Part shown: piece after piece, positions 1,231 through 40,658 of the stretch
How positions within the stretch are numbered: position 1 is the stretch's first letter
How the letters are laid out: the number at the start of each line of letters is the position of its first letter
Assembly (NCBI GenBank): GCA_041649955.1
Contig: JBAZMD010000001.1
Location: 68,079 to 132,078, forward strand
Direction of reading: 5' to 3'
Length of the DNA stretch: 64,000 nucleotides
Source of the DNA: Patescibacteria group bacterium
Lineage (GTDB): Bacteria; Patescibacteriota; Patescibacteriia; UBA2591; JAQUPP01
Notes under the pieces: generated by a model
What the model was told of the DNA's origin: nothing
Seen by the model: only the letters and a program-made list of their open reading frames with translations
Database searches by the model: none
Position numbers and translations under genes: made by a program

Positions 1231-1385
1231 GTAGCGAAATAAATTTCGCTACAAATTTGAGTACCCCGTCTCCAAACCTGTCAACAAAATAAATATTGTT
1301 AATGTAAATAAGCCGCAGGCGTTACCGTGAGTTAAATTCACGATTATCTCAAAATTTTATTCGGGTTTGGGGCGTGGGTTAACGT
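1231..1385 (+). repeat. intergenic repeat element, family B copy 1 (~155 bp)
   Basis: Aligns by eye with 38054-38202 and 40506-40658. Starts with palindrome GTAGCGAAAT-AA-ATTTCGCTAC. Carries conserved blocks TAAGCCGNAGGCGTT and GGGTTTGGGGCGTGGGT. Confidence 0.6.
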
Positions 1386-1412
1386 GTCTATATTTTATCA
1401 GAAATAAACGAT

Positions 1413-1440
1413 TTGACAAGTATAAAATTTTTGCTATAAT
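1413..1440 (+). promoter_or_regulatory. sigma70-like promoter (TTGACA-16-TATAAT) for the small ORF
   Basis: TTGACA at 1413-1418 and TATAAT at 1435-1440. Confidence 0.5.
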
Positions 1441-1465
1441 AAATTTGAAATAAAGGAGGTGAAAA

Positions 1466-1642
1466 ATGATAGGCGGTATAATTCTTGTGGTAATTGGTTT
1501 TATATTATTTGAAGTTAGTTTTAGTTGGGATTTAAAAAATCTTGGTTCATTAAATCTCAATTTAATACAAGATTACGGGCCTCCAATAACAATAATATGC
1601 GCAGGCGCCATGATCTTAATAGGAATAAATAAAATCTTCTAA
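1466..1642 (+). CDS. small hydrophobic membrane protein (58 aa), missed by the ORF track because it is under 60 aa
   Basis: Strong RBS AAGGAGGTG 7 nt before ATG. MIGGIILVVIGFILFEVSFSW...ICAGAMILIGINKIF has two hydrophobic segments. A promoter lies upstream and a hairpin downstream. Confidence 0.5.
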   Translation: MIGGIILVVIGFILFEVSFSWDLKNLGSLNLNLIQDYGPPITIICAGAMILIGINKIF

Positions 1643-1699
1643 AACTTTACCACTAAAATACAAAATAAGCATCCATTTAATATCGGGTGCTTATTTTTT

Positions 1700-1733
1700 T
1701 ATCCCGCACCTTCCTAATAAAAAAGATGCGGGA
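1700..1733 (+). terminator. hairpin ATCCCGCA...TGCGGGAT followed by a T-rich tract
   Basis: Perfect 8-bp arms, seen directly. Confidence 0.45.
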
Positions 1734-1744
1734 TTTATTCTATT

Positions 1745-3073
1745 TTATTTCTTTTCAATTTTTGAAAAACCGCAATATTTTTGCAAGACTTCTGGAATCA
1801 AGATTGATCCGTCTTTTTGCTGATAATTTTCCAAAACAGCCAAAATCATTCTTCCCAAAGCCACGCCGGTATCATTAACAGTATAACAATATCCTTTTTC
1901 ATTATTATTTTTTTGATAGCGAATATTCAATCTTCTGGCTTGAAAATCAGTCGCGTTGGTGTCAGTCATTGTTTCCATAAATTCATTGGCCGCTATTCTC
2001 CAAGTTTCAACATCATATTGCTTGTGACTGGCGGCATAACCGGCATCACCGGTGCATTTTTGAATCACCCGATAAGGCATTTTAAGTTGTTGCAGCAACC
2101 ATTCATTAATAGACACCAATTCTTCAAAAATTTCATCTGCTTGCTCGGGAAGGCAAATAACGTCCATTTCCAATTTATCAAATTGATGGACTCTTTTTAT
2201 TCCGTGAACGTCTTTTCCCCAAGAACCGACCTCGCTTCTAAAACAAGAAGACAGAGAGCACATTTTAAAAGGCATATCTTTTTCTGAAAATCTTCTATCC
2301 ATTCCGTAGCCGAAAAGTGACGGCTCGGAAGAACCGACTAAAAATAATTTATTTTTATCTTCCACGTTTTCATCGCTGATTTTATAAACCTGATCATATC
2401 CTTCGGGAAAATGGCTGGTGCCAAAAAGCACTCTTTCTTTAACCATCAAAGGCACAACCATTGGCATGAACTTTCTTCTTAAAAGTTCTTTGAATAACAA
2501 ATCAATAATCGCAAATTGCAAAATAACCGCTTCTTTTTTTAAGTAACAAAATCTTGAACCCGAAGTCAGGGCGCTTTGTTCTACGTCAATAATATCCAAA
2601 TCTTTGCCCAATTCAATATGATCCTTGCCCGGAAAATCAGATTTCGGCATCTGAGCAACGACTTCAAATCCTTTTCCCAATAAAGATTTATCTAAATATC
2701 CTTTTTCCGGAGTCCAGACTCTGACATCAATATTATCGTCTTCGCTTTTGCCGATTGGCGTATCTTCGCTCATCAAATTGGGAACCCAAACAGCCAATTT
2801 GTCCATTTTAGTTTTAATTTCTTCAAGTGATTCTTCTGTGGTTTTTAATTTTTCTTTCAATTCTTTTCCTTTGGCTCTTATCGCTTCATCTTTACCGGCA
2901 GTTAAATTATTTCTCTCAGCGCGAATATTTTCCACTTCTGTTAATTTTTTTCTGTATTCTTCGTCCAATTCCAATAACGCATCCACATCAGCTTTTTGCA
3001 AATCCATTTTTCGATTGATAATATTTTGCTTGATTTTTTCTTTGTTTTCTCTGATGAATTTAATATCTAACAT
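1745..3073 (-). CDS. serS: seryl-tRNA synthetase
   Basis: 442 aa. N-terminal coiled-coil arm followed by a class II aaRS core. Length and motifs typical of SerRS. Confidence 0.9.
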   Translation of the reverse strand: MLDIKFIRENKEKIKQNIINRKMDLQKADVDALLELDEEYRKKLTEVENIRAERNNLTAGKDEAIRAKGKELKEKLKTTEESLEEIKTKMDKLAVWVPNLMSEDTPIGKSEDDNIDVRVWTPEKGYLDKSLLGKGFEVVAQMPKSDFPGKDHIELGKDLDIIDVEQSALTSGSRFCYLKKEAVILQFAIIDLLFKELLRRKFMPMVVPLMVKERVLFGTSHFPEGYDQVYKISDENVEDKNKLFLVGSSEPSLFGYGMDRRFSEKDMPFKMCSLSSCFRSEVGSWGKDVHGIKRVHQFDKLEMDVICLPEQADEIFEELVSINEWLLQQLKMPYRVIQKCTGDAGYAASHKQYDVETWRIAANEFMETMTDTNATDFQARRLNIRYQKNNNEKGYCYTVNDTGVALGRMILAVLENYQQKDGSILIPEVLQKYCGFSKIEKK

Positions 3074-3100
3074 AATGATTAAAAAAAATTATACATTTAT

Positions 3101-3267
3101 AGCGAAATTAGCTCGAACGAAGTCGCGGAAAAGCCTTAGAAAATTAAGGAGTTTTATTGAAAAATTCATCTGTTTGACGACCTCTTCGGGAGGAGTTATG
3201 AATTTTTCAAAATAAAACGAGTATAATTTTCAAGGTTTTGGAGCGCTGGAGTGAAAGCGAAATTCGC
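3101..3267 (-). repeat. intergenic repeat element, family A copy 1 (~167 bp), an inverted relative of family B
   Basis: About 90% identical by eye to 38613-38778. Its reverse complement begins GCGAATTTCGCT...CTCCAAAACCT, like family B. Contains hairpin CCTCTTCGGGAGG and a mini-ORF GGAGGAGTT-ATG-AAT-TTT-TCA-AAA-TAA. Confidence 0.6.
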
Positions 3268-3273
3268 GGCTAT

Positions 3274-4734
3274 TTATAATTTGGGGCGCAAAATTGGGAA
3301 TAAAATAACTTCCCGAATATTGCAAGTATTGGTTAAAATAAGAGCCAATCGATCAATGCCAATTCCTTCGCCGGCTGTGGGCGGCATGCCGTATTTTAAA
3401 GCTTTAACGAAATCTTCATCAAGACCTTGCGCTTCTTGGTCCCCTTTTTCGCGCAGTTTATCTTGCTCGTCAAATCTTGATTCTTGATCCAAAGGATCGT
3501 TTAATTCTGAAAAAGCATTGCAAATTTCCATTCCGGCCACCAATAGTTGAAATCTTTCCACATAATTCGGATTATCAGGGCATTTTTTGGCCAATGGCGA
3601 AAGTTCAATCGGATGATGAATTAAAAAAGTCGGATTAATAAGTTTCGGCCTGACGCGCTCTTTAAAAAGTTCATCTAAAATTTTTCCTCTGTCCCATGAT
3701 TTTTCAACTGTTATGCCAAGTTTTTTCACTTGTTCAATCAATCCTTTTAAATCGCGGTATTCTTCAATATCAAGGCCTGTTTCATTTTTAATCGCTTGCC
3801 TGAATTCCAATCGCGGATAAGGCGGTTTGAAATTCAAAGTATTATTTTGATATTCAATGGTCAGTTTTCCTTCCAAATTAGACAACAAATATTCAAATAA
3901 TTCTTCGGTCAGTTTCATTAAAACATTATAATCGGCATAGGATTGATAAAATTCTATTTGGGTAAATTCAGGATTGTGAGAAGCATCAATGCCTTCATTG
4001 CGGAAACATTTTGCAATTTCATAAACTCTTTCAAATCCGCCGATAATCAATCTTTTTAAATAAAGTTCCGGCGCAACTCTTAAATATAAATCAATATCCA
4101 AAGCGTGATTATGAGTGACAAACGGCCTGGCAATTGCTCCGCCGGCTATTGCTTGAAGAACAGGCGTGCTGACTTCCATATAATCCCGCTGATTGAAAAA
4201 ATCTCTGATTAATTGTATCATTTTCGTCCTTTTGACAAAAATATCTCTTACTTCTTGATTGGCAATTAAATCCAAATATCTTTGACGATATCTTGTTTCC
4301 ACATCAGACAAGCCGTGCCATTTTTCAGGAAGCGGTAAAAGAGCCTTGGATAAAAGTTTCCAACTCGTCGCTTTAATTGTTTTCTCGCCTCTTTTGGTAA
4401 TAAAAAGATGACCCTTGATTTCCAAAAAATCGCCGACATCAATATTTTCATTAAAAAACTGATATTCTTTTTCTCCAACATTATCTTGAGCGAAAAAAAT
4501 CTGAAAACGGCCGGTTCCATCTTCCAGATTGGCAAAACACGCCTTGCCGTGAAGCCGCAATAAAACCAAGCGTCCGACTAAACTTACCAAAATTTCTTTT
4601 TCCGATAATTTATCAAAATCATCAATCGCTTGTTTTACGGTATGAGACCTCTCGGATAAAGCCGGATACGGATTAACTTGGCTTGATTTAATTTTTTCTA
4701 ATTTTTCTATTCTTGATTGTTCTTCGTTAGTCAT
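3274..4734 (-). CDS. lysS: lysyl-tRNA synthetase, class II
   Basis: 486 aa. N-terminal OB-fold anticodon-binding region followed by a class II catalytic core, typical of LysRS. Confidence 0.9.
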   Translation of the reverse strand: MTNEEQSRIEKLEKIKSSQVNPYPALSERSHTVKQAIDDFDKLSEKEILVSLVGRLVLLRLHGKACFANLEDGTGRFQIFFAQDNVGEKEYQFFNENIDVGDFLEIKGHLFITKRGEKTIKATSWKLLSKALLPLPEKWHGLSDVETRYRQRYLDLIANQEVRDIFVKRTKMIQLIRDFFNQRDYMEVSTPVLQAIAGGAIARPFVTHNHALDIDLYLRVAPELYLKRLIIGGFERVYEIAKCFRNEGIDASHNPEFTQIEFYQSYADYNVLMKLTEELFEYLLSNLEGKLTIEYQNNTLNFKPPYPRLEFRQAIKNETGLDIEEYRDLKGLIEQVKKLGITVEKSWDRGKILDELFKERVRPKLINPTFLIHHPIELSPLAKKCPDNPNYVERFQLLVAGMEICNAFSELNDPLDQESRFDEQDKLREKGDQEAQGLDEDFVKALKYGMPPTAGEGIGIDRLALILTNTCNIREVILFPILRPKL

Positions 4735-4796
4735 AAATTTATGGTTAAAATAGATGTAATTATTATAACATTATTATAAAATATTATCAACAACTA

Positions 4797-4824
4797 AAAA
4801 TGACCCTTTAAAGGGTCATTTTTA
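4797..4824 (-). terminator. perfect palindrome AAAAATGACCCTTTAAAGGGTCATTTTT, bidirectional intrinsic terminator after greA
   Basis: 8-bp GC-containing stem flanked by A/T runs on both sides. Confidence 0.6.
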
Positions 4825-4841
4825 TTGATAAAATAATTATT

Positions 4842-5300
4842 TTATTTAATTTCAATAATTGTAAAAGTCGTAAGACCGGTTGGAACCTGAAATTCCACTT
4901 TTTCATTAAGTCTCTTATTTAAAAGGGCTTGCCCTAATGGAGACTCATAGGAAATTCTGCCTTGCGCCGGATCTGATTCTTCACTGTCCACGATCATGAA
5001 AGTCTTAAAATCATCTTTAATTTTAAGTTTGACCGTTGAACCTATTCTAACCACATCTTTATTTTTCTGATGGCTGTCAATAATTTCAACATTTCTCAAT
5101 AAATTTTCCAGTCTTATTATCTCATTTTCTACCCATCCCTGCTCTTCCTTAGCTGTCGTATATTCCGCATTTTCGCTTAAATCACCCAGTTCTTTGGCAG
5201 CACGAATCCGGTCCGCAACTTGCGGCCTTCTTACGCTTCTTAATTCTTCCAATTCTTGTTCAATTTTTTTTCGCCCTTCAGGCGTTAAGAAAAATGTCAT
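4842..5300 (-). CDS. greA: transcription elongation factor GreA
   Basis: 152 aa. N-terminal coiled coil with LSENAEY motif and a C-terminal FKBP-like domain. Confidence 0.85.
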   Translation of the reverse strand: MTFFLTPEGRKKIEQELEELRSVRRPQVADRIRAAKELGDLSENAEYTTAKEEQGWVENEIIRLENLLRNVEIIDSHQKNKDVVRIGSTVKLKIKDDFKTFMIVDSEESDPAQGRISYESPLGQALLNKRLNEKVEFQVPTGLTTFTIIEIK

Positions 5301-5317
5301 ATAGATTCATTATTATT

Positions 5318-5385: not shown

Positions 5386-5480
5386 AAAAAACACCGAGTT
5401 AATTGGTATTAGTTTATATTATTATAGCAGGTATCCTGCAAAAGTCAAATCCCCTTGTGGAAAACTTTTTACTCCAAATA

Positions 5481-7406: not shown

Positions 7407-7429
7407 AAAAAATACTTTTTATTACTGTT

Positions 7430-18643: not shown

Positions 18644-18815
18644 ATTTACCTCATTGGGGCGAGGATTATGTCGCTAAGAAAAGTGTCTTCCGCCAAAGGG
18701 CGGATAAACTCCGGGCGAGTAGTTCGCCAGCTGGGGCGGAGAGCCCGAGAGCCAAGCGACAATTTTCCCGCTGGGAAAATTGATCGTGTCTTTTCGTGCG
18801 ACTAATCCGAACCTT
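18644..18815 (-). promoter_or_regulatory. GC-rich ~172-nt structured spacer between rpsU and yqeY, candidate attenuator or cis-regulatory RNA
   Basis: Minus-strand hairpins CAATTTTCCC-AGC-GGGAAAATTG and TTCCGCC-CTTTG-GCGGAA followed by CTTTTCTT. CCTC...GAGG can sequester the yqeY SD (GAGG). Local GC is far above the flanking sequence. Confidence 0.3.
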
Positions 18816-19034: not shown

Positions 19035-19070
19035 ACTTTATATTATAATATATAATAATTAAAAAGCAAG

Positions 19071-19215
19071 CCCCACCACATGGAAATTATTGTTTTTCTG
19101 TAAAATTACGATTTAATAAGTATAAATTAAAAAAAATATTTTAGTTAGATATTTGAAATTATTAAGCATATAAAAAAACAAGAGAACAGTAATTTTAATA
19201 ATTTCCTTGTGGTGG
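19071..19215. repeat. long-loop inverted repeat IR-1 (arms CCCCACCACATGGAAATTA / TAATTTCCTTGTGGTGGGG, ~107-nt AT-rich loop)
   Basis: 18 of 19 complementary arm positions. Sits between the rpsU start and the Na/Pi transporter stop. Confidence 0.4.
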
Positions 19216-19256
19216 GGCAAGCCTATTCTAACACATATTTTTATAGACGGGAAGAA

Positions 19257-25290: not shown

Positions 25291-25343
25291 AATTTTTTCC
25301 TCCTTTTTTTCCCATTATATAATGGGCTAACCTTTATAATTAA

Positions 25344-25372
25344 ATAATAGCAAAAATTTTGATTTTTGTCAA
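25344..25372 (-). promoter_or_regulatory. conserved extended promoter (TTGACA-17-TATTAT) upstream of the PLP enzyme gene
   Basis: Minus strand reads GGGGATTGACAAAAATCAAAATTTTTGCTATTATT. Confidence 0.55.
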
Positions 25373-25376
25373 TCCC

Positions 25377-26237
25377 CTATTTTTGTTCTTCTTGCTTCCT
25401 AGATTGTACAATTATAGCTTTTTCTACTAGTTCAATATCATTAGGAAGTTTCTTCGCTTCAAAGTCGCCATTATTATCTTGTGAACTAATTTTTTCATAA
25501 AGTAACTTTAATCTATTTTGTTTTTCATCAGTAAGATTCCAACCTTTTTTGAAATCTTCCGTAGATAAAGGGATGTCATATCTGTATAAAATTTCGTTTT
25601 TAATAAAACCGGCATTTTTTAATAATTCTAATAAGGCTTGTTCATCTGTGATAAATTTTTCAACTGCTACTTTTTCTGCAATAATCTTTTCCCTTTCTGT
25701 ATAAAGATAATTAGTCATTTGATTATTTCGAACGGCCGGTGAAACTAAAGCGGATAAAATAAGCTTGCCATCATTTTTTAAAACCCTATTCACTTCTGAT
25801 AGAGCTTTTATCTGTAAGGGTTTTGGAAGATAATCTAAAACCTGTTTTATGGTAATTATGTCGACTGATTTATCATTCAGGGGAATGTCAATAATATCCC
25901 CTGGAAGTTTATCATAACCCTTTTTATCAGGAATCTCATTAAGCATGTCTAGATTCCTGTCAATAAAAATTGTTTTAATGTTAATTCCTTTGTCTTTTAA
26001 TTTCTTCTCAAATTCTTTATTAAAAAAATCCCCGCATATTCCGGGACCGCAACCAATATCAGCTAAAATAATTTCTTTTTTCTTAGCTATTTCTTCAAGA
26101 TCTAAACCGCGAAACATATTCTCTAATACGTCTTCTCTGGCCTGATAACCACGCAAGGATTCTCTATAATTTTTTATCCTCCAAGTATCTCTTGAAACAA
26201 TGTCGCCAGTTGAAACTCCTTTTTCAATATTTGTCAT
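25377..26237 (-). CDS. class I SAM-dependent methyltransferase
   Basis: 286 aa. Motif I ILADIGCGPGICG and a post-motif acidic residue. Confidence 0.7.
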   Translation of the reverse strand: MTNIEKGVSTGDIVSRDTWRIKNYRESLRGYQAREDVLENMFRGLDLEEIAKKKEIILADIGCGPGICGDFFNKEFEKKLKDKGINIKTIFIDRNLDMLNEIPDKKGYDKLPGDIIDIPLNDKSVDIITIKQVLDYLPKPLQIKALSEVNRVLKNDGKLILSALVSPAVRNNQMTNYLYTEREKIIAEKVAVEKFITDEQALLELLKNAGFIKNEILYRYDIPLSTEDFKKGWNLTDEKQNRLKLLYEKISSQDNNGDFEAKKLPNDIELVEKAIIVQSRKQEEQK

Positions 26238-28433: not shown

Positions 28434-28540
28434 CTTTCCTCCTTTTTCCCTTGTTTTTCAAGGGAATTTCTGAAAAATTTGATTTCTTGTTTTTAAACCC
28501 TTGTTATTAAATTACAAAGAACTTTATCTTTTATGTTAAA

Positions 28541-28569
28541 ATAATAGCATATTTTTTGATTTTTGTCAA
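28541..28569 (-). promoter_or_regulatory. conserved extended promoter TTGACA-17-TATTAT
   Basis: Minus strand reads GGGGTTGACAAAAATCAAAAAATATGCTATTATT. Confidence 0.6.
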
Positions 28570-28585
28570 CCCCTTTATTAAAAAT

Positions 28586-28616
28586 TCAAAAAGGCGAGAA
28601 TTAATCTCGCCTTTTT
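28586..28616 (-). terminator. hairpin AAAAAGGCGAGA-TTAA-TCTCGCCTTTTT, bidirectional terminator
   Basis: Perfect stem flanked by A/T runs. Confidence 0.55.
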
Positions 28617-30205: not shown

Positions 30206-30668
30206 AAATGCGGGATTTATTTATTTTTTCTCCTCTGTCTTCCAACCAAAATCTTTTGCTTTCAATAACATCTTCGCCGTAAAATGATTTGTCCAATTTT
30301 AAATATCTACAAAGTTTTCCCGGCCCGGAAGTTAAATTTTTTTCTTTAGAAGCTAGAGCGCGAATTAAAACGCATTCCGGCTTGCCTGATTTAGAAGTAG
30401 TGATATTCAATTGCCAATACATGCCATAAACCAAATAAATATAAATATGCCCGCCCTTGAAATATTCAGCAATATTTCGAGAAGTCATTCGATTGTTATA
30501 AGCATGGCAAGCTCTGTCTTTTGGGCCGACATAAGCTTCTGTTTCAATAATTTTTCCTTCTAATTTTTTATTGCCGATTTTTCTGACAATATATTTCCCC
30601 AATAATTCCTTGGCTACTTTTAAAGTCGGCCGAGTATAAAAATTTCTGGTTAATTTTTTTATTTTCAT
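30126..30668 (-). CDS. mpg: DNA-3-methyladenine glycosylase (Mpg/AAG family)
   Basis: 180 aa. FYTRPTLKVAKELLGK...ETEAYVGPKDRACHAY...GHIYIYLVYGMY is typical of the MPG family. Confidence 0.8.
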   Translation of the reverse strand: MKIKKLTRNFYTRPTLKVAKELLGKYIVRKIGNKKLEGKIIETEAYVGPKDRACHAYNNRMTSRNIAEYFKGGHIYIYLVYGMYWQLNITTSKSGKPECVLIRALASKEKNLTSGPGKLCRYLKLDKSFYGEDVIESKRFWLEDRGEKINKSRIFATKRVGIDYAGPYWANKKWRFSLKN

Positions 30669-30816
30669 CCCTCACCCTTCGACGATAATATTCGCCCTCG
30701 TATTTTCCAATTGCCTTTTATAAAATAAAAATAAATTTTCTTGAATCCAGATTAAACTGAATAAATTAGTAAAGACAGGCTCGTATTTGGAAAATAACAT
30801 CGTCGAAGGGTGAGGG
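30669..30816. repeat. long-loop inverted repeat IR-3 (CCCTCACCCTTCGACGAT / ATCGTCGAAGGGTGAGGG, perfect 18-bp arms, ~112-nt loop)
   Basis: Seen directly. Immediately upstream of the mpg start. Confidence 0.45.
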
Positions 30817-30823
30817 ATAAACT

Positions 30824-33800: not shown

Positions 33801-36800
33801 AAATCTGCCGGTATTAGAATCTGTTTGTGTATTAGCCCAGCCCGGTCCATTCATTTGCCAAGCATTAACCATCACACTGCCAATTGCATTACCGGCCGAA
33901 TCTGTAACCGTTCCTTTAATATGAGCATTCTTTGCTGTTAAAATAAGTGTGCCTGCGTCAGTTGTTTGTTCAGAAATAGCTTTGATTTTAACCGGAGTGG
34001 AACCGCCATAACTCTGACCTTGTTCGCCCCAGTTTGGATTAGCCACCAAATCATAAGTACCAGCTGGAACTTTAAAAGTAAAACGTCCATCAGAATCAGT
34101 ATTGGCACCATTGCCACCACCCATCATACCGCCGCTATTGGCCATTACCCAAGAATTGGCAATTGCCGTAGCACCGGTTGGATCTTTAACTAAACCTGTA
34201 ATAATAGCATTGGCCACTTGAACTTCAAAATCCAAACCAGCATCAAGTATAGTAGCGCCTCCCGGACAATTTCCCACTGTACCGCGGCATTCCGTGCTGC
34301 CATCTTCGGTAAAAGTAGTTCTCTTTGGAGATTCATTATAAACCCAATCAGGTTGACCCATGCTCCAATCAGGATTTACACTTAACCACCAGCCGCCGCC
34401 GGCAAGTTTTAAAGTATATTCACCACTTGAATTTGTTAATGTTTCAAAATGTCCACCTCCCATATCGCGATTAGCTTGAACGCGGGCATTAGCGACTAAT
34501 GCACCGCTGCCCTTTTTAGTCACTGTACCGGTTAAAGTTTTTGTTGGGACAGTTAAGGTAATTAAATTATTTGCCTGAGCCACATTGGCCACTTTAACTG
34601 TGCCTACGTCATCAGCAACATCAACGGTTAATCCGCTTGGTTGAATCCAAGCTTTTTCACCGCCCCAAGGCAAATTGATTTCCATGGATAATCCGGTGGC
34701 ATTGGTTAAACCGCCGATTCGGAAATAACCTTGATCATCAGTTGAAGCACCACCCTGATTTTGCCACATTTGATCATGAATCATAATCCAAGACCATTGG
34801 ACAGGTTGATCATCCGCAGTTCCGGCAACTTCATCCGCACCCGGATTCATTACTCTTCCGGTAACTTGCGGCGTACCAAGTATGAGTTTACCGCCGGTTC
34901 CATAAGTCACACCTAAATCTAAATTAGAAGTTCCGGCAGCTACGGCAGAGGAAATTGTAATATTAGAATATTTTTTTGTTGAATAATTACGATAAACAGC
35001 TTGTTCTTCAGGCGTCCCCCAACGTGGAGCTTCAATTTCTAAAGCATAAGTTCCTGCTGTCACACCACCAAAAGAGAATTGACCGTTCTGATTAGTGTTT
35101 GTGCCATACCAACCACCCGTAGTACCGCCTTGCATTGGTCCTTCAATATGGAAATTAATCCAAGCATTAGCCACAGTTGTAGTAGTATTTGGAATAACAA
35201 CCGTACCGCTAATATTCGGAGTGCTTAAAATTATATTTTTGGTTCTGCTTGATTGAGAACTGGTAACTGTAACATTCTGAACAAGTTTTCTCCCGCAAGT
35301 AATATTTCCGCAACCATTCCAAGGATTTGCTTCCACTTCATAAGTACCAATAGTCACACCGCCAATGGCATAATTTCCATTAGCATCTGTTTGTGACCAT
35401 TGAGAACCGGACATTGAACCTTGTGATCGCATATTAATACCAACATTAGTTGCACCGATATCAGGATAACCCACCGGATCATCGCATTCAGCTTGAGTCA
35501 CAGTTGAATTGTCGTCATGTTTCGGTTTGCAAACACGACCGGTTAAACCATTAACTGTCGGGTCGCTTAACAAAACAAGTAAACTATTATTAGCAATTGT
35601 CAAAGCAGTACCCGGATCTGATACCTCGGTAATAGTAGTTCCGGCAACACTTACTACCATGCCTTGCGGCGCAGCATAAAGACTGCCGTATTGAGTATTG
35701 ACATTAAAATTCCAGCTGCCCGTAGGAACATTTAAACTAAATGTTCCATCACTTTGAGCACTGGCGCCATAACAACTACCGGCTGATTGATAAGGACAAA
35801 AATCAATCCAAATTCCGCTTTGTCCGGTTGTACCGGTTGGATCTTTAACTACACCAGTAACATTGGGTGCTGATAAAGTAAATGCGTCATCATCAACGCT
35901 ATCAAGAGTGTCAGCTTGATCTTTTAAATCATTAGAAGTAGTTGAAGTAATGGAAACTGAAAAATTACCGCTGGCACAAGCACTGCCGCTCGCCGGTTGA
36001 ATTCGAAGATTATAAGTACCAAGTGCCACGCCACCAAGAGAAAAATTACCACTATCATCAGTATTTACACCATACCAAGAACCATCTTTATCCATATTTA
36101 TCCAAGCGACGGTTGTTACACCACCGCATTTTACTTTTCCAAAAACATTTGGCAAAGCAAAAGTTTTATTTCCCAAATCAGTAATTTGTCCATCCGTAAC
36201 ATCAATGGCAAATTCAGCAGTTCTTGTTCTTGGATAACTTCTAAAGTCGCCGCTGTATGGCGGCTCAATTTCTAAAATATAATGAGTACTGTCTGTCACT
36301 CCGCCAAAATAAACTATGCCATCAGCATCGGTCTGTGCCCATTGATTGTAAGACCAATCCATAGTATGAAGACCAATATTGGCATAAGGCACTGGCAAAC
36401 CAGGCTGAGGATTACTTGCCGTAGCAGTATCACCTAAAGTACCAGGAGCCTTAATCGTTACTTTAACATTTTGAGCGGATAAATTGATATTAATGCCGGT
36501 TGCAGTTTGACCTGAAGTTAAACATTGAGAAGTTCTAACGCTTTTATATTGTAAAACTCTGTCTTGATAATCTTTGGGTCTGGCTTCAATTTCATAACAT
36601 TGGCTGCTGGTATCATTTGGAACATAAAGTTTCCATGTTCCGTTTGGACCGGTTGTTGTTCTTTGCTCATAGTCCCAAGTATAAGGACGAGCAACCACTT
36701 CTACGCCTTCCAATAATGTTGCGCCACTGGGAGATTTAACCGTACCGGAAAGAGTGGCTGTTCTAAAAGCTTGGGTGGCTAGTGTTGCCACTGAACCCAC

Positions 36801-37808
36801 CGTAGCTGTTTGACTGCTTAACTTGGAGGGCGCCACATAAGTCGCGCCGGCCGGGGTGCTGAATTGTATATTATAACTTCCGGTCGCACTTAATAATAAA
36901 GCATATTTGCCATTGGAATGAGTTTCCCCAAGCACGACATTTCCCATTTGTCCGGGCGTAAAAGATTCAACCTGGACTCTATCTATGTCACCGGCCGTAT
37001 CTGAGGTAAGACTACCTATAAATATGCCTTGCGTGCTATTCCAAATTATAAATGGTCGTGAATCTGAAACACGACGCGTATTCAAATCACTAATTATTAT
37101 ATCTACGCGGCCGTTTAATCCGGTTGGAATTGTAGCCGTAAGTTCAGTAGCTCCGGCAGTTGCAGGCGTGGATGTTACACTTCCTCCGTTAAAATTCCAA
37201 TATATTTCTGTTGCGTCAGTTGAGGTGGAATAATTAGAACCGGTAATCGTTACTGTATCGCCGACATTGCCGCACGGATAACCATTGCAAAGATCAGACT
37301 CAGTAGTATTGGTTATATAATTGATAATCGGATCAATAGAAGCGCTAACAGTATTGTTGGCAGTAAAATCTTCTATAGTTTGAGTTCCTGCTAAATTTTT
37401 AATATCTCCGGCTGTCATCTGCCAAGTTTGTCCTTCGCTTAATTTTAAATTTTTTAAACCGTAAATTCTTAAACGATAATCATTCTCGCCCGCCTGAATA
37501 CTTTGAGTTGACATATCATAAGGACTGAATCGACTTAATGTTCTGTCTGTTAATCCCGCTCCTGTTTCAAAAATAAAATTACGCAAATCTGTCGCGTAAT
37601 TGGTTGCACTTCCTGCTTCGGTTGTTGAAGATGGGGTTGTTTCTGCGGAAAATTGTCCGTTGAATGTAATTTCCGCTGAAGTTGTCGAGACCGTAATATC
37701 GGTCACGGCTATTGGTGCTAATGCACTCACTGATGTGGACAGCCCCATTGACCACAACATGGTCGTGGCTGTCACAAAAATTGAAAAAAACTTTTTTGTG
37801 TTGTTCAT
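30882..37808 (-). CDS. giant (2308 aa) secreted surface protein built of many beta-sandwich repeats (CarboxypepD_reg/Cna-B-like) with a C-terminal module shared with 8760-10340
   Basis: Signal peptide MNNTKKFFSIFVTATTMLWSMGLSTSVSALA. Recurrent GxV...G.Y.L repeat units. C-terminus HPNGTLVKYTGTSQIYLIQNGKKYKL. Confidence 0.65.
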   Translation of the reverse strand: MNNTKKFFSIFVTATTMLWSMGLSTSVSALAPIAVTDITVSTTSAEITFNGQFSAETTPSSTTEAGSATNYATDLRNFIFETGAGLTDRTLSRFSPYDMSTQSIQAGENDYRLRIYGLKNLKLSEGQTWQMTAGDIKNLAGTQTIEDFTANNTVSASIDPIINYITNTTESDLCNGYPCGNVGDTVTITGSNYSTSTDATEIYWNFNGGSVTSTPATAGATELTATIPTGLNGRVDIIISDLNTRRVSDSRPFIIWNSTQGIFIGSLTSDTAGDIDRVQVESFTPGQMGNVVLGETHSNGKYALLLSATGSYNIQFSTPAGATYVAPSKLSSQTATVGSVATLATQAFRTATLSGTVKSPSGATLLEGVEVVARPYTWDYEQRTTTGPNGTWKLYVPNDTSSQCYEIEARPKDYQDRVLQYKSVRTSQCLTSGQTATGININLSAQNVKVTIKAPGTLGDTATASNPQPGLPVPYANIGLHTMDWSYNQWAQTDADGIVYFGGVTDSTHYILEIEPPYSGDFRSYPRTRTAEFAIDVTDGQITDLGNKTFALPNVFGKVKCGGVTTVAWINMDKDGSWYGVNTDDSGNFSLGGVALGTYNLRIQPASGSACASGNFSVSITSTTSNDLKDQADTLDSVDDDAFTLSAPNVTGVVKDPTGTTGQSGIWIDFCPYQSAGSCYGASAQSDGTFSLNVPTGSWNFNVNTQYGSLYAAPQGMVVSVAGTTITEVSDPGTALTIANNSLLVLLSDPTVNGLTGRVCKPKHDDNSTVTQAECDDPVGYPDIGATNVGINMRSQGSMSGSQWSQTDANGNYAIGGVTIGTYEVEANPWNGCGNITCGRKLVQNVTVTSSQSSRTKNIILSTPNISGTVVIPNTTTTVANAWINFHIEGPMQGGTTGGWYGTNTNQNGQFSFGGVTAGTYALEIEAPRWGTPEEQAVYRNYSTKKYSNITISSAVAAGTSNLDLGVTYGTGGKLILGTPQVTGRVMNPGADEVAGTADDQPVQWSWIMIHDQMWQNQGGASTDDQGYFRIGGLTNATGLSMEINLPWGGEKAWIQPSGLTVDVADDVGTVKVANVAQANNLITLTVPTKTLTGTVTKKGSGALVANARVQANRDMGGGHFETLTNSSGEYTLKLAGGGWWLSVNPDWSMGQPDWVYNESPKRTTFTEDGSTECRGTVGNCPGGATILDAGLDFEVQVANAIITGLVKDPTGATAIANSWVMANSGGMMGGGNGANTDSDGRFTFKVPAGTYDLVANPNWGEQGQSYGGSTPVKIKAISEQTTDAGTLILTAKNAHIKGTVTDSAGNAIGSVMVNAWQMNGPGWANTQTDSNTGRFDLTVSEGNWGVMIMPMSTQYIYQGGPQQVTITANQTSDNNDFLLKVADGLLKVNVVDADGNRVSDIWGGVWVKDTDPTVNDFIDFGDPKMMAGGSGDAGSGGTAVGGGSGGGGAMGAGMDKGGFAGGGLANGYTEIKVPLGSYELGLNTPPGSKYTLTVTKTVTVGESDTCTDETTGCKEIDLVVAPNNATIEGKFYLDTNSDSSYTAGTDTVVTGVRAFINGDKENGGWSQTEFAPSSVNDKYSLKVSAGSWYVDAFIDPMMNFGDDNDKYKIVAEDVKSTVIADSTTTRNFQLKKLDKTISGTITDPDDVGMSGVWVYADFGDETTKNDFKGPGGLGVGTFTGNDGTYTLNVTSGTFKIGAGIPPWDARDLINPPLLSVTVGDSNVTGKDLQFSLSDATITGEVTLDSVRKQAMIQAWSEDKGTGTMASDGTYTLKVKSGETWYVKATAKIDGVLYESAATEVITVAGAQTKNLTLVTTGLAVPEAKTTTFNASDSKTIELTNGLTLEIPAGALASSGTVTVTITPTVGDENQTTVSVKPDAKDKPLGVNYDFTAKDSTGQEITQFDNDVKITFPYDPDLITDYGYTEADITPKYFDDTTNTWENYKSVVRDATNNVIIVTTNHFTPGGITGGKFVTAGGDSTPMSGSSGGGGNAGNLGPKDLSLKINSGAAKTTSRNVTLNITATDAAEMMISNTIDFVGINWEPYQATRSWLLPVGKGEKVVYIRFRDKTFNLSSIISAIIISESEETAEVITYNLKNRDLVICPTCTAQPGAVYMILDGKAHVFPHLNVYLSWGYPSNFSTVKKVTSEEFAKYSEGVAMTFRDGSLFRGKTTSLHGLSASAVFMVSDGKLRPVKSSAIYQKLFNDPKWKLVTWVPDDLLSKFNYPLGDTIDSTTKHPNGTLVKYTGTSQIYLIQNGKKYKLSAKALTNNGYSKVPVMTISKAETYSDGGTISDFAENLVTPKFLAAK

Positions 37809-38053
37809 AGTTTTTCTAAAAAATAAATTTAATAAAAATATATTTAAAATTTCTAATTAGTAAAAACTCCCCCTATCTAAATAATCTTATTTTAATTTAC
37901 GAGTGAGTGAAAGAAAAGCAAAATTAATTTACTTTTTCAAATGAAGAAAATATAAAATTTAATGTCTTTTTATTATAACACTTTAAAAAATGAAAGGGTG
38001 GGGATGGTTGTGGATAACTTCCAAGGTTATCAAAAATTGCGAGTTTAAAAAAC

Positions 38054-38202
38054 AAAGCAATTTTTGCTATAACCTTGAGAATCCCGCTTCAAATCTCTGA
38101 ATAAAATTGGTTTAAAAACCAAAGTAAGCCGAAGGCGTTTCCGCGGGATAAATTAAATTATTTTTAAAAAACTTTTTTTGGATTTGAGGCGTGGGTTACC
38201 GT
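38054..38202 (+). repeat. intergenic repeat element, family B copy 2
   Basis: Aligns with copies 1 and 3. Terminal palindrome AGCAATTTTTGCT. The long-range helix shows compensatory changes (CTTCAAATCTC pairs with GGATTTGAGGC). Confidence 0.6.
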
Positions 38203-38225
38203 AAATTTTAGTCCCCTTTTATTAG

Positions 38226-38253
38226 TTGACACATTTTTTAAATATGCTATTAT
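38226..38253 (+). promoter_or_regulatory. conserved-type promoter TTGACA-16-TATTAT (CATTTTTTAAATATGCTATTAT)
   Basis: Plus strand, directly upstream of the RAM-domain ORF. Confidence 0.55.
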
Positions 38254-38299
38254 ATATAAATAATTATTTTAAAAATCAAAATAATTAAAAGGAGGAGAA

Positions 38300-38542
38300 A
38301 TGGAAAAAGTAGAGGCTCATGTCTTTTTAAAAGTAAAAACTTCGGAAGAGGCAGCGGAAAAAATATTGAAAACATTACGCTCTATTGAAGGAGTGGTTAG
38401 GGCGAATATGGTAACGGGGATTTACGATATGATTGTCAATGTTAAGAGTGAAAATCTCAAAACGCTGGGAGAACTTATTGCATGTAAAATCAGTAATATA
38501 GAAAATGTAATATCCAGTATTACCTGTATTGTTGTAAAATAG
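38300..38542 (+). CDS. stand-alone Lrp/AsnC ligand-binding (RAM) domain protein
   Basis: 80 aa. The HVFLKVKT...IEGVVRANMVTGIYDMIVNVKSENLKTLGELI pattern matches the AsnC C-terminal domain. Strong SD AAAAGGAGGAG. Confidence 0.6.
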   Translation: MEKVEAHVFLKVKTSEEAAEKILKTLRSIEGVVRANMVTGIYDMIVNVKSENLKTLGELIACKISNIENVISSITCIVVK

Positions 38543-38557
38543 CCCAGACAAAAAAGG

Positions 38558-38590
38558 TCCTGCAAGAAATTGCAGGCCTTTGATTTTTAA
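38558..38590 (+). terminator. hairpin GGTCCTGCAA-GAAA-TTGCAGGCC followed by TTTGATTTTT
   Basis: Seen directly. Confidence 0.6.
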
Positions 38591-38612
38591 TCCTTCATCC
38601 CTCCACGCTTGT

Positions 38613-38778
38613 GGCGAAATTCGCCTGAACGATGTCGCGGAAAAACCTTAGAAAATTAAGGAGTTTTATTGAAAAACTCATCTGTTTGACGACCTATTTG
38701 GGAGGAGTTATGAATTTTTCAGAATAAAACGAATATAATTTTCAAGGATTTAGAGCGTTGAGTGAAGGTGAATTTTGC
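38613..38778 (-). repeat. intergenic repeat element, family A copy 2
   Basis: About 90% identical to 3101-3267. Mini-ORF ATG AAT TTT TCA GAA TAA with GGAGGAG SD. Ends 8 nt from the stop of 38786-39673. Confidence 0.6.
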
Positions 38779-38785
38779 AACACTT

Positions 38786-39673
38786 TTATTTTTTTCTTAA
38801 TTGATAAATGGTGTAGAATTTGGAAAAAGCGGGATGTTTAACCGGCTCTTTTATTTTTTTAACAATCGTAAAATATTTTTTAACCAGCCGGTCAAACATT
38901 TTTTCCGGCAGCATAGTAACGCGATGCGGCTGATTGTAAAAATCAAAAGTCATTAAATCATATTCTTTTTGAGTGATTTCTTTGTTTTTTAATTTCTCGC
39001 CTAAAAACAGATTAAATTTGTTCATCTCGGTAGTGTATTCTTTCTTGTTGTAAAATCGCGGATCTGAATAAGCGCAGCTTTCCCAAATATAAATTTTATT
39101 ATTCAATGATTTGAAATAATTCGGCTGGCGCTTGCATTTTTCAATCACGCTTTCCGCGGTCTGCAATATCGGACTCGCGTTGGTAACGGTAATAATCAAT
39201 TCTCCTCCCGGTTTCAGAATAGTTTTCATTGCCTTAAAAAATTGTTCGTACAACTCAAGATTGACCAAATTATTGGTTACGGCATGGCCGATAATGCAAT
39301 CAAATGTTTTGGGAAGAAAATATTTTGTCGCTTCTGTCCAAAGACCGTTGGTTATTTTTTCTTTGCTTTCTATTTTTTTTAAACCGTTCATTGTTTCAAC
39401 CATATTTTGGCTGAATTCCAAAAGCGTGACCTTAAATTTCATTTTTGCCAGACAATCCCGAATGGCCGGCGTACAGCCTAAAACCAAGGCCTTATTGCCT
39501 GATTTCTTTTTAATGATTTTTAAAATTTTAGCGCAAGCGGCAATATGCTTTTTTGAAGGCACAAAAGGCGGCGGAATTTTGGCATAGGTTTGAGTATACC
39601 CTTCTTGCCACACTTTTTTATTTATTGCTTCTTTTTCCATGTTAGTTATTTTTTTAAAAAATAAATTGGGCAT
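38786..39673 (-). CDS. methyltransferase-fold protein, paralog 2 of 3 (motif LVLGCTPAIRD)
   Basis: 295 aa. Alignment described under paralog 1. Confidence 0.5.
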   Translation of the reverse strand: MPNLFFKKITNMEKEAINKKVWQEGYTQTYAKIPPPFVPSKKHIAACAKILKIIKKKSGNKALVLGCTPAIRDCLAKMKFKVTLLEFSQNMVETMNGLKKIESKEKITNGLWTEATKYFLPKTFDCIIGHAVTNNLVNLELYEQFFKAMKTILKPGGELIITVTNASPILQTAESVIEKCKRQPNYFKSLNNKIYIWESCAYSDPRFYNKKEYTTEMNKFNLFLGEKLKNKEITQKEYDLMTFDFYNQPHRVTMLPEKMFDRLVKKYFTIVKKIKEPVKHPAFSKFYTIYQLRKK

Positions 39674-40479
39674 TGGTGAACAAAAGGATGATCTGTACCG
39701 TATTTAACGGCAGAAATCTTGAAATATTTTTTCATCATTTTCTCCCCTTCTTTTTCCGGCAGAGTCCACCAAGTTTTGCCCAACGGCCATTGTTGATGAA
39801 AAATCTTAATCAATTTGGCTATTTGCTTTTTTCTGGCCGCGTTCTTTTCATCTTGCCAAGATTTTTTAAGCGCTGAACTGATGCCGTCCGTACTCGTACT
39901 ACTGTCTTTTGCTTTCCAAACAACAAATAATCCGCCATAAGCAAATTCACTGATACTTTCTTGATTAAATTTTTTCTTAATCACGAGATTAATAAATTCT
40001 TGAATTGATTTTTTGGGAAAAATAGGAAAAAGATGGCGGGTAATAAAACAACCGCCCGGCTTTAAAACCTCTCTGATTTTAGCCAAAAATTTCGGCTGTA
40101 ATTTAATCGGAATATTACAAATAACAAAATCTCCCAGAACAAAATCATAATAATTTTGAGCCACGGGCATAGTCAGCCAGCCGGCCTTAATCCAAGTTTC
40201 CTTGTCTGCATTTTTTTGATATTTCACCCATTTGGTCATAGCCATTAGCATATCCAAACTAATATCAACGCAAGTCACTTCTGCTTTTTGGCGATGCACC
40301 AAGTCGCGAAATTCGGGCGTTCCGCCTAAAATCAAAATTTTAGCCGGTTTTTTATGTTGAGCAATGAATTTTTCTATAATCTGGCATTCGCTTTTTGACG
40401 GCCGGTTGGGCGGAGTATAAACTTGCCATTGATGTGCCATTTTTTGCGCGTGATAATAAGCTACTTTTGGTTCTGCCAT
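39646..40479 (-). CDS. methyltransferase-fold protein, paralog 3 of 3 (motif ILILGGTPEFRD)
   Basis: 277 aa. Overlaps the next gene by 28 bp. Confidence 0.5.
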   Translation of the reverse strand: MAEPKVAYYHAQKMAHQWQVYTPPNRPSKSECQIIEKFIAQHKKPAKILILGGTPEFRDLVHRQKAEVTCVDISLDMLMAMTKWVKYQKNADKETWIKAGWLTMPVAQNYYDFVLGDFVICNIPIKLQPKFLAKIREVLKPGGCFITRHLFPIFPKKSIQEFINLVIKKKFNQESISEFAYGGLFVVWKAKDSSTSTDGISSALKKSWQDEKNAARKKQIAKLIKIFHQQWPLGKTWWTLPEKEGEKMMKKYFKISAVKYGTDHPFVHQCPIYFLKK

Positions 40480-40505
40480 AATTGTCGATTTAGATCCGCC
40501 AACTG

Positions 40506-40658
40506 GCGGAGAAATAAATTTTCGCTACAATTTATGAGCACCCTGCTTCAAACCTCTAAACAAAATCAGTTCAAAGATAGCGTAAGCCGAAGGCGTTTCC
40601 ATGAATTAAATTAATTATTTTTTCACGAACCTTCTTCGGGTTTGGGGCGTGGGTCGCC
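40506..40658 (+). repeat. intergenic repeat element, family B copy 3
   Basis: Aligns with copies 1 and 2 (GAAATAAATTTTCGCTACAA...TAAGCCGAAGGCGTTTCC...CGGGTTTGGGGCGTGGGT). Embedded between two co-oriented methyltransferase genes. Confidence 0.55.

Follow-up and report, generated by a model that had tools for sequence, protein, structure and literature searches.

Question addressed

Five short intergenic repeats lie in a 64,000-nucleotide stretch of a Patescibacteria contig (the window), which raises the question of whether they are RNA genes, miniature mobile elements or neutral remnants, and of whether they form one family or two. The original prediction sorted them into types A and B and proposed a structured RNA or a MITE. 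All five copies are present where it had placed them, with A1 and A2 90% identical and the B copies 75-87% identical in pairwise comparison, although the 5' edge of B (plus strand) lies ~30 nt further out than had been proposed. From the comparisons below we consider B1, B2 and B3 to be, probably, non-autonomous, gene-less members of a selfish family of intergenic GIY-YIG cassettes found across Patescibacteria, with A as a separate palindrome.

Repeat copies in the window

1197..1388, minus strand: B1, putative gene-less cassette copy
1200-1262, minus strand: P0 of B1, outer stem CAAATTTG at 1202-1209 / 1252-1259, inner hairpin at 1231-1252
1263-1279 and 1363-1379, minus strand: helix arms of B1 P1
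3097..3270, no strand assigned: A1, near-perfect 170-nt palindrome, hairpin 3102-3267 of ~60 bp
38021..38205, minus strand: B2, putative gene-less cassette copy
38022-38077, minus strand: P0 of B2, stems CAAGGTTAT/ATAACCTTG and CAAAAATTG/CAATTTTTG
38081-38096 and 38180-38196, minus strand: helix arms of B2 P1
38609..38782, no strand assigned: A2, second palindrome copy
40477..40663, minus strand: B3, putative gene-less cassette copy flanked by two methyltransferase genes
40477-40536, minus strand: P0 of B3, outer stem beginning on the CAT start codon of gene 39646-40479
40540-40555 and 40638-40654, minus strand: helix arms of B3 P1

Each B copy is laid out as a long hairpin of about 55-60 nt (P0) and then a domain with a 16-bp closing helix (P1). 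As predicted, the B copies sit upstream of minus-strand gene starts: P0 abuts the start codons of alr (B1) and of a methyltransferase gene (B3), and the start of the giant gene (37808) lies 213 nt downstream of B2. Read in the gene sense (minus strand), B1 runs through the P1 domain, GGGTACTCAAATTTG, the P0 hairpin and CAAATTTGGTATG, the last of which holds the alr start codon (plus-strand CAT, 1197-1199). Again as predicted, the A copies end close to minus-strand stop codons, 2-7 nt beyond those of lysS and a methyltransferase gene; A2 begins 2-3 nt past the stop codon of methyltransferase gene 38786-39673, and A1 wholly occupies the lysS-serS spacer. A, too, replaces an entire stop-to-start spacer. 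The expected mini-ORF is also there, following GGAGG on the plus strand at the apex of A1 (MNFSK) and reading MNFSE in A2. Copy density in the window region is three B and two A per ~74 kb; with one further B in the rbfA-rny spacer of L079, the known loci number four B and two A, all in one species-level clade.

A cassette family in other genomes

An nhmmer profile of the P1 3' arm plus P0, built from seven elements outside the window, matched exactly B1 (1197-1270, E 1.8e-16), B2 (38021-38086, E 8e-6) and B3 (40474-40545, E 8e-5) in the window, all on the minus strand. P0 of B1 agrees at 59 of 66 positions (89%) with its counterpart in the GIY-YIG cassette of L092, a different host, and the modules are 75-89% identical across distant hosts. 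The layout common to the elements outside the window is TAA, hairpin Pa, P1 between ACCC and GGGT, P0 and TTTGGTATG, and it is at TTTGGTATG that the 3' arm of P0 ends in B1 and most family members. Complete cassettes, whose architecture was read directly in L077, L081, L083 and L092, end in GGGT, hairpin P0 and TTTGG(T/C)ATG, and span, in sense orientation, the interval between the stop codon of one gene and the ATG of the co-directional gene that follows. In these copies P1 encloses an ORF for a single-domain, UPF0213-like GIY-YIG nuclease of 84-89 aa, the last codons of which make up the P1 3' arm (the 5' arm follows ACCC). The ORF has 2877 homologues, the best 120 of which are mostly 73-90% identical and come from several named Patescibacteria lineages, many on short contigs; whole cassettes from three hosts share 75-79% DNA identity. 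The P0 profile also matches Pa on the reverse strand. Pa resembles the reverse complement of P0, so the cassette is bounded by terminal inverted repeats, imperfect and ~85 nt long, each of which contains a hairpin.

The genes downstream of the module are functionally unrelated (alr, methyltransferase, Sua5, YmdB, YidC and a MurJ-like gene). At 11 of 11 loci the element is oriented as its host genes are. Both this and the nuclease ORF make the minus strand the sense strand here, contrary to the original prediction, which had favoured the plus strand. In the B copies of the window P1 and P0 remain but Pa is gone, and the interior of P1 is specific to B, with no detectable similarity to the nuclease ORF. 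We infer that B descended from an ORF-bearing copy by deletion, internal loss or replacement of the ORF giving rise to derivatives of 170-240 nt. Of the two original proposals the MITE is thus supported for B, since B is related to an ORF-bearing family while non-coding itself, varies in presence between near-identical strains and shows compensatory helix changes; the free-standing plus-strand RNA gene is not supported.

Gain, loss and invariance between strains

In L079 and L077 the HD-Sua5 junction reads TAA|TATG, whereas L081 has a 173-nt insert there; at this clean insertion (one filled/empty pair) there is no target-site duplication, the sign of mobility that had been suggested as a check. 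The rbfA-rny spacer holds B in L079 and none in L081 although the RNase Y protein is identical, and the rny-ymdB and yidD-yidC spacers are likewise filled or empty between close strains, gene-less and gene-bearing copies both varying in presence between near-identical strains. B3 is missing from L011, an 88-91% identical relative, together with the adjacent methyltransferase gene (~40480-41500). A1 is missing from L004 and L014 (flanks 94-96% identical), where an unrelated 59-nt spacer occupies the site, and the A2 ortholog in L011 is 92% identical, approximately the divergence of its flanks (88-91%).

The B1 region 1168-1433 shows zero differences from L004 and L014, the 126 nt of B2 that overlap L011 are identical, and B2 shares 87% identity with the copy in the L079 rbfA-rny spacer. 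Identical tracts surround B1 and B2 in strains whose flanks differ by 6-12%. Such tracts match what co-conversion would produce, but purifying selection acting on a regulatory region that had been exapted would explain them equally well.

Helices, covariation and strand

The 5' hairpin predicted for B is found in all copies, with the compensatory change GCGAA/TTCGC versus GCAA/TTGC. The long-range helix proved equally real, its 16 bp being paired in 64 of 64 cells across four B copies, and the C-G to U-A swap described in it was recovered; with 12 U-G cells and zero A-C, the plus strand is the one on which pairing is better. The claim of covariation holds for the family more than for the window. 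Covariation from the B copies alone is weak: for the long helix, taken from the window copies and one relative, 36 of 500 shuffles reached the observed score, which is not significant. In the wider family the P0 helix is paired in 92.5% of cells, with double changes at 10 pairs and a covariation score of 0.377 versus 0.127 in shuffles (0/500 reach the observed value), far above both shuffle and slide controls, and among the P1 arms there are three mutually unrelated sequence classes, every one fully complementary. It is only through this wider family in other genomes that the B helices are established. The Rfam search that had been proposed returned no matching family.

One family or two

The proposed kinship of A and B in inverted orientation is not supported. 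Neither nhmmer profiles nor a covariance model nor Smith-Waterman alignment tested against shuffles detected significant similarity between them; the only shared feature was a 15-nt motif, AATTTCGCTAYAAAT, common to B1 and the reverse complement of A1. A and B could still be imagined as the differentiated ends of one mobile cassette with passenger genes (B2, promoter, RAM-domain gene, terminator, A2), given this shared motif, the 400-bp gene unit that B2 and A2 bracket in an arrangement conserved in L011, the B1-A1 distance of 1.7 kb and the truly mutual inverted repeats at the ends of complete GIY-YIG cassettes. We regard this as very improbable: besides the lack of significant similarity, the P0 profile misses A, B1 occurs without A1 in L004 and L014, no A copy accompanies B3 or the rbfA-rny copy, the essential gene serS sits between B1 and A1, and at four loci A and B are independent of each other. 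A1 and A2 are instead a separate element, a MITE-type palindrome of 170 nt whose presence varies between strains, for which we found neither an autonomous partner nor a link to the GIY-YIG cassette family.

Alternative readings of B

As predicted, strong promoter-like motifs lie just downstream of B1 and B2 on the plus strand:

1392..1440, both strands: back-to-back promoter-like sites beside B1 (sequence motifs), invariant between strains
1413-1440, plus strand: TTGACA-16-TATAAT, would serve small ORF 1466-1642
1419-1392, minus strand: TTGTCA-16-TAAAAT, transcription would start at the B1 edge and run through B1 into alr
38205..38253, both strands: back-to-back promoter-like sites beside B2 (sequence motifs)
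38226-38253, plus strand: TTGACA-16-TATTAT, would serve RAM-domain gene 38300-38542
38232-38205, minus strand: GTGTCA-16-TAAAAT, reads into B2

It seems improbable that B is a free-standing structured sRNA or cis-antisense RNA of the plus strand whose targets would be alr, the giant gene and the methyltransferase gene, each at its 5' region. In favour of this, P0 overlaps the start codon surroundings of alr and the methyltransferase gene, to which a plus-strand transcript would be antisense; the wobbles of P1 and the B3 hairpin are valid on the plus strand only, B folds 2-7 kcal/mol better on that strand, and orthologous copies are unchanged between strains. However, no convincing plus-strand promoter upstream of B and no terminator after it were found to define an RNA gene, Rfam offers no match, the copies are dispensable between strains, and the wider family and its nuclease ORF follow the orientation of the host genes. 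Elsewhere in the family, folding is equally good or better on the sense strand, and the outermost G-U wobble of P0, present in 8 of 10 members, is valid on that strand only.

The opposite strand might have been exapted as a 5' leader controlling translation or processing of the downstream gene, a possible if somewhat doubtful reading that is compatible with a selfish origin. P0 would sequester the 13 nt before the AUG, its 3' arm ending at TTTGGTATG, and the minus-strand promoter-like sites would place the 5' end of the mRNA at the edges of B1 and B2; neither element nor promoter region varies between strains whose neighbouring coding sequence differs by 6%. Against this, the unrelated genes behind the same module suggest no common regulatory logic, close relatives lack the module at the same site, and the next start codon is 213-414 nt from B2 and the rbfA-rny copy. 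P1 of B also shows C-A mismatches on the minus strand, and its wobbles, suited to the antisense strand, run against a purely sense-RNA role. Least credible of all, and contradicted for B, are neutral remnants of local duplication free of structural constraint: A does diverge at about the rate of its flanks, with mismatches accumulating on both strands, but the P0 covariation, the full pairing of P1 in every member despite unrelated arm sequences, the 75-89% identity of modules between distant hosts and the precise stop-to-start boundaries at unrelated loci all speak otherwise.

Predicted spread and comparison with known systems

If B1-B3 are gene-less GIY-YIG cassettes, the family would spread through repair of breaks triggered by the nuclease (whose activity, like the mobility, is predicted), in a homing-like manner with co-conversion of flanks; ORF-less copies might alternatively be mobilised in trans. 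Classical site-specific homing is doubtful, because the nuclease lacks a DNA-binding domain and its insertion sites are alike in little but the stop/start junction. Copies might be tolerated since they would be co-transcribed with the operon and provide the downstream gene with its translation start region, and the stems would curb nuclease translation and permit RNA processing, or act as DNA recognition structures. Our search of the accessible literature found no description of this family, which therefore appears to be undescribed.

Its hairpin ends, lack of target duplication, non-autonomous derivatives and strand-specific folding recall the IS200/IS605 derivatives (PATEs) and REP/RAYT elements, although neither the window nor any locus examined contains a Y1 (HUH) transposase. 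The strand preference of those elements is opposite to that of B, whose better-folding strand is the leading-strand template. Bacterial MITEs and palindromic repeats such as Correia, ERIC/IRU, RUP, bcr1 and the Rickettsia RPE are 100-200 bp, non-coding, intergenic, hairpin-forming and strain-variable; they are co-transcribed with their neighbours, and some bring promoters or alter mRNA processing. Unlike them, the elements described here insert in register with stop and start codons, showed no target-site duplication at the one filled/empty pair, have low copy number, and have, in the case of B, an autonomous relative encoding a GIY-YIG nuclease rather than a DDE transposase.

Free-standing intergenic GIY-YIG endonuclease genes of phage T4 are hairpin-regulated and spread with co-conversion (PMC2988022). 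The segA-G genes of T-even phages, like the cassettes, lie between co-directional genes outside introns, vary between close relatives and are flanked or regulated by RNA hairpins, and their flanks co-convert, as those of the cassettes may (PMC2988022). Seg proteins, however, join a GIY-YIG domain to a DNA-binding domain, whereas the cassette proteins are domain-only. The cassettes further differ in their inverted-repeat ends, their exact stop-to-ATG boundaries, their cellular CPR hosts and their ORF-less derivatives at many loci, more in the manner of a transposon with its MITEs. Within the same phylum, rRNA genes of CPR bacteria carry GIY-YIG ORFs in insertions that belong to neither the group I nor the group II introns and were judged by their authors not to spread by classical homing (PMC11270868). 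By their description these non-intron insertions are like the cassettes, but they lie inside rRNA genes, whereas the cassettes lie between protein-coding genes.

Two separate families of intergenic repeat

Repeat detection and nhmmer profiles both returned five repeats in the window, at the positions of the original prediction, which had taken them for one five-copy element and a candidate structured RNA or MITE. They divide into three B copies, with pairwise identities of 75-87%, and two A copies that are 90% identical:

1197-1388, minus strand (the sense of the genes): repeat B1
38021-38205, minus strand: repeat B2
40477-40663, minus strand: repeat B3
3097-3270: repeat A1, a palindrome of ~170 nt
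38609-38782: repeat A2, a palindrome of ~170 nt

Neither approach found further A or B copies in the 64-kb window. Almost all genes in the window lie on the minus strand, GC skew is negative along its full 64 kb, and none of the genes codes for a transposase, integrase or reverse transcriptase. Flanking the repeats are alr, serS (between B1 and A1), lysS, the gene for a giant 2308-aa protein and three methyltransferase genes.

A had been proposed to be B in inverted orientation, a relationship that was rejected by nhmmer, by a covariance model and by shuffled Smith-Waterman alignment. Neither nhmmer profile crosses over to the other family, even with E allowed up to 10, and a B covariance model run on the window with filters off recovered the 3 B copies only, leaving A unmatched. 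Local alignments of A with B were no better than those of dinucleotide shuffles, except for a 15-nt motif, AATTTCGCTAYAAAT, that reached p ~0.02 in one of twelve A-B comparisons. A is thus not the inverted twin of B.

Family A is a single imperfect hairpin of ~60 bp that starts 2-7 nt past a minus-strand stop codon and is known in three copies at two loci. It evolves at an approximately neutral rate with mismatches of both polarities, and no relative of it was detectable. The conservation of its mini-ORF is uninformative, since the ORF is unchanged among copies that are at least 90% identical. A T-box or other serS leader was considered for A1 and rejected, as there is no Rfam match and strains of 95% identity lack the element upstream of serS. 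We file A as a palindromic, MITE-like insertion.

The B-type inserted unit is ~190 nt and begins ~30 nt earlier than first drawn, as seen from filled and empty alleles at the rbfA-rny spacer of related strains. The 5' hairpin of the original prediction does exist, and is in fact the 55-60-nt hairpin P0, larger than reported. Read on the plus strand, B consists of this hairpin followed by a ~120-nt domain that is closed by a 16-bp helix, P1. The outer stem of P0 reaches the CAT start codon of alr in B1 and that of a methyltransferase gene in B3.

An intergenic GIY-YIG cassette family in Patescibacteria

Weak matches of the B profile in two related DNAs, L081 and L077, led to elements of the same plan. 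Their layout is TAA-AGGGCTTTGTCT...ACAAAACCTTT (hairpin Pa), then ACCC...GGGT (P1), then AC(T/G)CAAAWTT...AAWTTTGGTATG (P0); all are in the sense of the host genes and extend from one gene's stop codon up to the ATG of the gene downstream. The P0 module has the consensus GGGT-AC(T/G)CAAAWTT, a hairpin, and AAWTTTGG(T/C)ATG. Between yidD and yidC in L077 and L078, P1 (ACCCTGTTAAATAA / TTATTTAACAGGGT) encloses an intact GIY-YIG ORF of 89 aa, the last codons of which form the 3' arm of P1, while in the L081 cassette at the same spacer the nuclease ORF is a pseudogene. On the opposite strand the P0 profile also matches Pa, at E 2e-4 to 6e-4, so a complete cassette has imperfect terminal inverted repeats of ~85 nt with a hairpin in each. 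Members of the family in other Patescibacteria are as follows:

L082-L091: cassette in a PrgI/TraC operon
L092-L096: cassette between rpsI and a MurJ-like gene
L097-L101: reduced cassette with P1 alone

Whole cassettes from three hosts share 75-79% DNA identity. The nuclease is a domain-only GIY-YIG protein of 84-89 aa that is closest to structurally solved UPF0213 proteins, and scores weakly against TIGR01453 (19.6 bits; cut-off 56). At E up to 1e-10 its homologues number 2877. Most of the best 120 are 73-90% identical; many of these sit on short contigs, and their named sources include several Patescibacteria lineages (Parcubacteria, Moranbacteria, Minisyncoccia). The GIY-YIG cassette family is widespread in Patescibacteria, and is apparently undescribed, as no description of it was found in the searchable literature. 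Complete cassettes had no match in Rfam 15, whether gathering thresholds or a relaxed cut-off of E up to 1 was used. A group I intron was rejected: there is no Rfam match to the conserved catalytic core (Intron_gpI), and the ORF-less members are 173-240 nt of three tandem hairpins, against the at least ~200 nt expected of such an intron without an ORF.

The link from these cassettes back to B was made with an nhmmer profile of the P1 3' arm and P0 module, built from seven elements of which none came from the window. On the window it gave exactly three matches below E = 0.1, each of them to the minus strand:

1197-1270, minus strand: P0 module of B1, E 1.8e-16
38021-38086, minus strand: P0 module of B2, E 8e-6
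40474-40545, minus strand: P0 module of B3, E 8e-5

P0 of B1 is identical to that of the L092 cassette at 59/66 nt (89%), and P1 of B likewise begins ACCC, ends GGGT and directly adjoins P0. Elements of the family are co-oriented with the host genes at 11/11 independent loci. Contact with the ATG is seen in B1 and B3, with B2 and the fourth B copy (rbfA-rny) lying 213 nt and 414 nt from the start codon. A window pattern search for the Pa module (TAAAGRGYTTTGTCT...ACAAAACCTTT) gave chance-level matches only, and its position is taken by promoters at B1 and B2 and by a 14-nt spacer at B3. The interiors of B are non-coding, with no similarity to the nuclease ORF, which puts B among the non-autonomous relatives, alongside the ORF-less members in L081 and L077. 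The best-supported reading is therefore that B would be a gene-less derivative of the GIY-YIG cassette family.

Helix covariation and the folding strand

The original prediction had argued from helix covariation for a recognised structure. The feature it picked out is real and non-trivial, and the helices do matter. Among ten members, 92.5% of the cells of the P0 helix pair, with ten pairs changed on both sides and one-sided variation in none; covariation scores 0.377, shuffles give 0.127 (0/500), and slid controls reached at most 0.10. The arms of P1 fall into three unrelated classes (ACCCTGTTAAATAA, ACCCCCTCCTTTT and that of B), each fully complementary. The long-range covariation claimed for P1 within B held only in part. 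In the four B copies the 16 bp are paired in all 64/64 cells, with double changes at two positions, but with only four sequences the signal is not significant (matched by 36/500 shuffles).

As to which strand folds, the evidence conflicts. P1 of B contains twelve U-G cells and zero A-C, so it pairs better on the plus (antisense) than on the minus strand, and one Pa mismatch becomes a G-U wobble only on the antisense strand. Folding of the sense strand is favored by the orientation of the family and its nuclease ORF, by the outer G-U pair of P0 and by the minimum free energies of two other members. That P0 shows no one-sided changes is a pattern more usual in DNA palindromes than in RNA helices, and the structured-RNA half of the original prediction drew no Rfam match for A or B at gathering thresholds or at E up to 5. 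B is not a five-copy RNA gene family. It may also act as a 5' leader, given that minus-strand promoter-like sites adjoin B1 and B2. A promoter inside the B hairpin was discounted, as in 3/4 copies, by reading of the sequence, the conserved final T is missing from the -10-like hexamer.

Gain and loss between strains

Three relatives (L004, L014 and L076) match the window at 94-96% identity across alr-serS-lysS. B1 is unchanged in all three, with zero differences over window positions 1168-1433 beside flanking coding sequence that differs by ~6%. A1 is absent from L004 and L014, where the lysS-serS spacer is an unrelated 59 nt; L076 stops short of this spacer. A further relative, L011 (88-91% identical), carries B2 (identical over the 126 nt available) and A2 (92%), and is without both B3 and the adjacent methyltransferase gene. 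The fourth B copy, present in L008, L079 and L080, is missing from L081, whose RNase Y protein is identical, and likewise from L077 and L078, in which that protein is 95% identical. Co-conversion would leave invariant tracts such as those seen around B1 and B2.

Insertion polymorphism between close relatives, as would be looked for in a MITE, was found for A1, B3, rbfA-rny, HD-Sua5, rny-ymdB and yidD-yidC. Terminal inverted repeats are represented by the ~60-bp arms of A, the P1 arms in B and the resemblance of Pa to the reverse complement of P0. B has ORF-bearing relatives, whose GIY-YIG protein may or may not be a mobilizing enzyme; none was found for A. A target-site duplication, also proposed as a mark of mobility, was lacking at the one clean filled/empty pair, HD-Sua5, where the junction reads TAA|TATG in L079 and L077 and L081 has a clean 173-nt ORF-less element between those bases. 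At rny-ymdB, yidD-yidC, rbfA-rny and lysS-serS the entire spacer differs between filled and empty alleles, with the upstream gene sometimes gaining a new C-terminus, so these sites are uninformative on duplication.

Scans with the B pattern recovered one true relative from genomes (L004) and three from metagenomes (L008, L011 and L014), and three viral-contig scans gave chance matches only. In relatives with a SerS ~70% identical, neither A nor B was present within 20 kb.

Although speculative, and in our judgment rather unlikely, the hairpin-ended cassettes with their ~85-nt inverted repeats could be an unrecognized class of prokaryotic mobile element, in which the single-domain GIY-YIG (UPF0213-type) nuclease would recognize the structured ends (Pa/P1/P0) and not DNA sequence, and would move the element, and in trans its ORF-less B-type derivatives, into operon stop/start junctions without target duplication. 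If true, this would give the widespread orphan UPF0213 family a function.

Patescibacteria genomes are tiny and tightly packed, yet carry a recurrent selfish cassette, which fits the stop-to-start gap and supplies its own replacement translation start region. If confirmed, the family would explain a class of structured intergenic repeats previously without explanation, as well as the small genes for a "GIY-YIG nuclease family protein" at which CPR assemblies break; it would also provide markers for strain-level recombination, a testable role for single-domain UPF0213 nucleases, and a warning that a covarying helix in such genomes can mark the end of a mobile element and not a regulatory RNA.

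Other elements in the window and its relatives

A small plus-strand ORF beside B1 (window 1466-1642; L004 4718-4912; L014 2466-2630) is replaced by unrelated alleles in L004, L014 and L076. Its product is hydrophobic, 54-64 aa long, with apparently two membrane-spanning stretches, and the three alleles share almost no sequence between flanks that are 94-98% identical. It is a hypervariable cassette set between the invariant B1 with its promoter and serS.

On the minus strand at 62980-63311, immediately before tRNA-Gln (62897-62970) in the upstream direction, is an 84-aa GIY-YIG ORF whose product shares 46% identity with the cassette nuclease. The first 12 nt of the tRNA (TGCGGGATCGTC) recur at 63299-63310; after them come a GC-rich, hairpin-like insert of 64 nt and the D-loop motif TAATGGTA, the ATG of which is the start codon of the ORF. 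The arrangement looks like that of a second GIY-YIG element, associated with the tRNA and with its target putatively duplicated in part.

A third element family of ~155-160 bp (window 30664-30821; L008 ~1478-1622) has 29-bp inverted termini (ATCCCTCACCC...GGGTGAGGGAT) and unrelated interiors, and its right terminus runs into the next start codon (GGGTGAGGGATG), that of a DNA glycosylase gene in the window and of rbfA in L008. Sequence similar to this terminus flanks A2 on its left (38591-38606). An element of ~167 bp at 19061-19227, in the spacer upstream of a Na/Pi cotransporter gene, has 31-bp inverted arms (84% complementary) and an AT-rich 105-nt interior. Downstream of a YqeY-like gene, a GC-rich, structured-looking stretch (18650-18800) in an AT-rich spacer had no Rfam match at E up to 1.

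A perfect DnaA-box-like TGTGGATAA stands immediately before B2 (38009-38021) and before the rbfA-rny copy (L079 9587-9619). Since L081 and L077 already have it at their empty rbfA-rny site, it could mark a preferred target or be a chance feature of the B2 subfamily. A replication origin beside B2 was dismissed, as GC skew is uniformly negative with no strand switch. A DGR-like pair (bAvd and an RVT_1 reverse transcriptase) lies upstream of rbfA (L079 7524-8910 / L080 3289-4675, equivalent to L008 404-1450) only in strains with the rbfA-rny B copy, being absent from L077, L078 and L081. By eye, a spacer ~2.5-3.1 kb left of the window (L075 7492-8077) holds RNase P RNA-like sequence (GGAAAGTCCGAACAC...), unrelated to the A and B elements. 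Finally, repeat family D2/D7 (25339-25396, 28536-28593, 57030-57087, 58401-58458 and 62810-62867) was rejected as a mobile repeat because it is the standard promoter of the genome on the opposite strand (TTGACA, 14 nt, TGCTATTAT).

Comparison with known systems

TnpB/IS200-IS605 omega-RNAs, IS110 bridge RNAs and retrons were set aside as no matching protein is encoded in the window; the same applies to integron attC sites, for which no R'/R'' motifs of attC type are apparent in the sequence. GIY-YIG ORFs have been reported in non-intron insertions of CPR rRNA genes, insertions that were judged not to resemble classical homing (PMC11270868). In phage T4 the free-standing GIY-YIG (seg) genes are intergenic, hairpin-regulated and spread by break repair and co-conversion (PMC2988022), and the cassettes and B resemble such free-standing genes in their variable presence and their co-orientation with host genes (11/11 loci). 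Unlike the seg products, the cassette nuclease is without a DNA-binding domain, and cassette insertion sites are diverse. In these diverse sites, the domain-only nuclease, the inverted-repeat ends and the ORF-less derivatives, the cassettes look more like a transposon and its MITEs.
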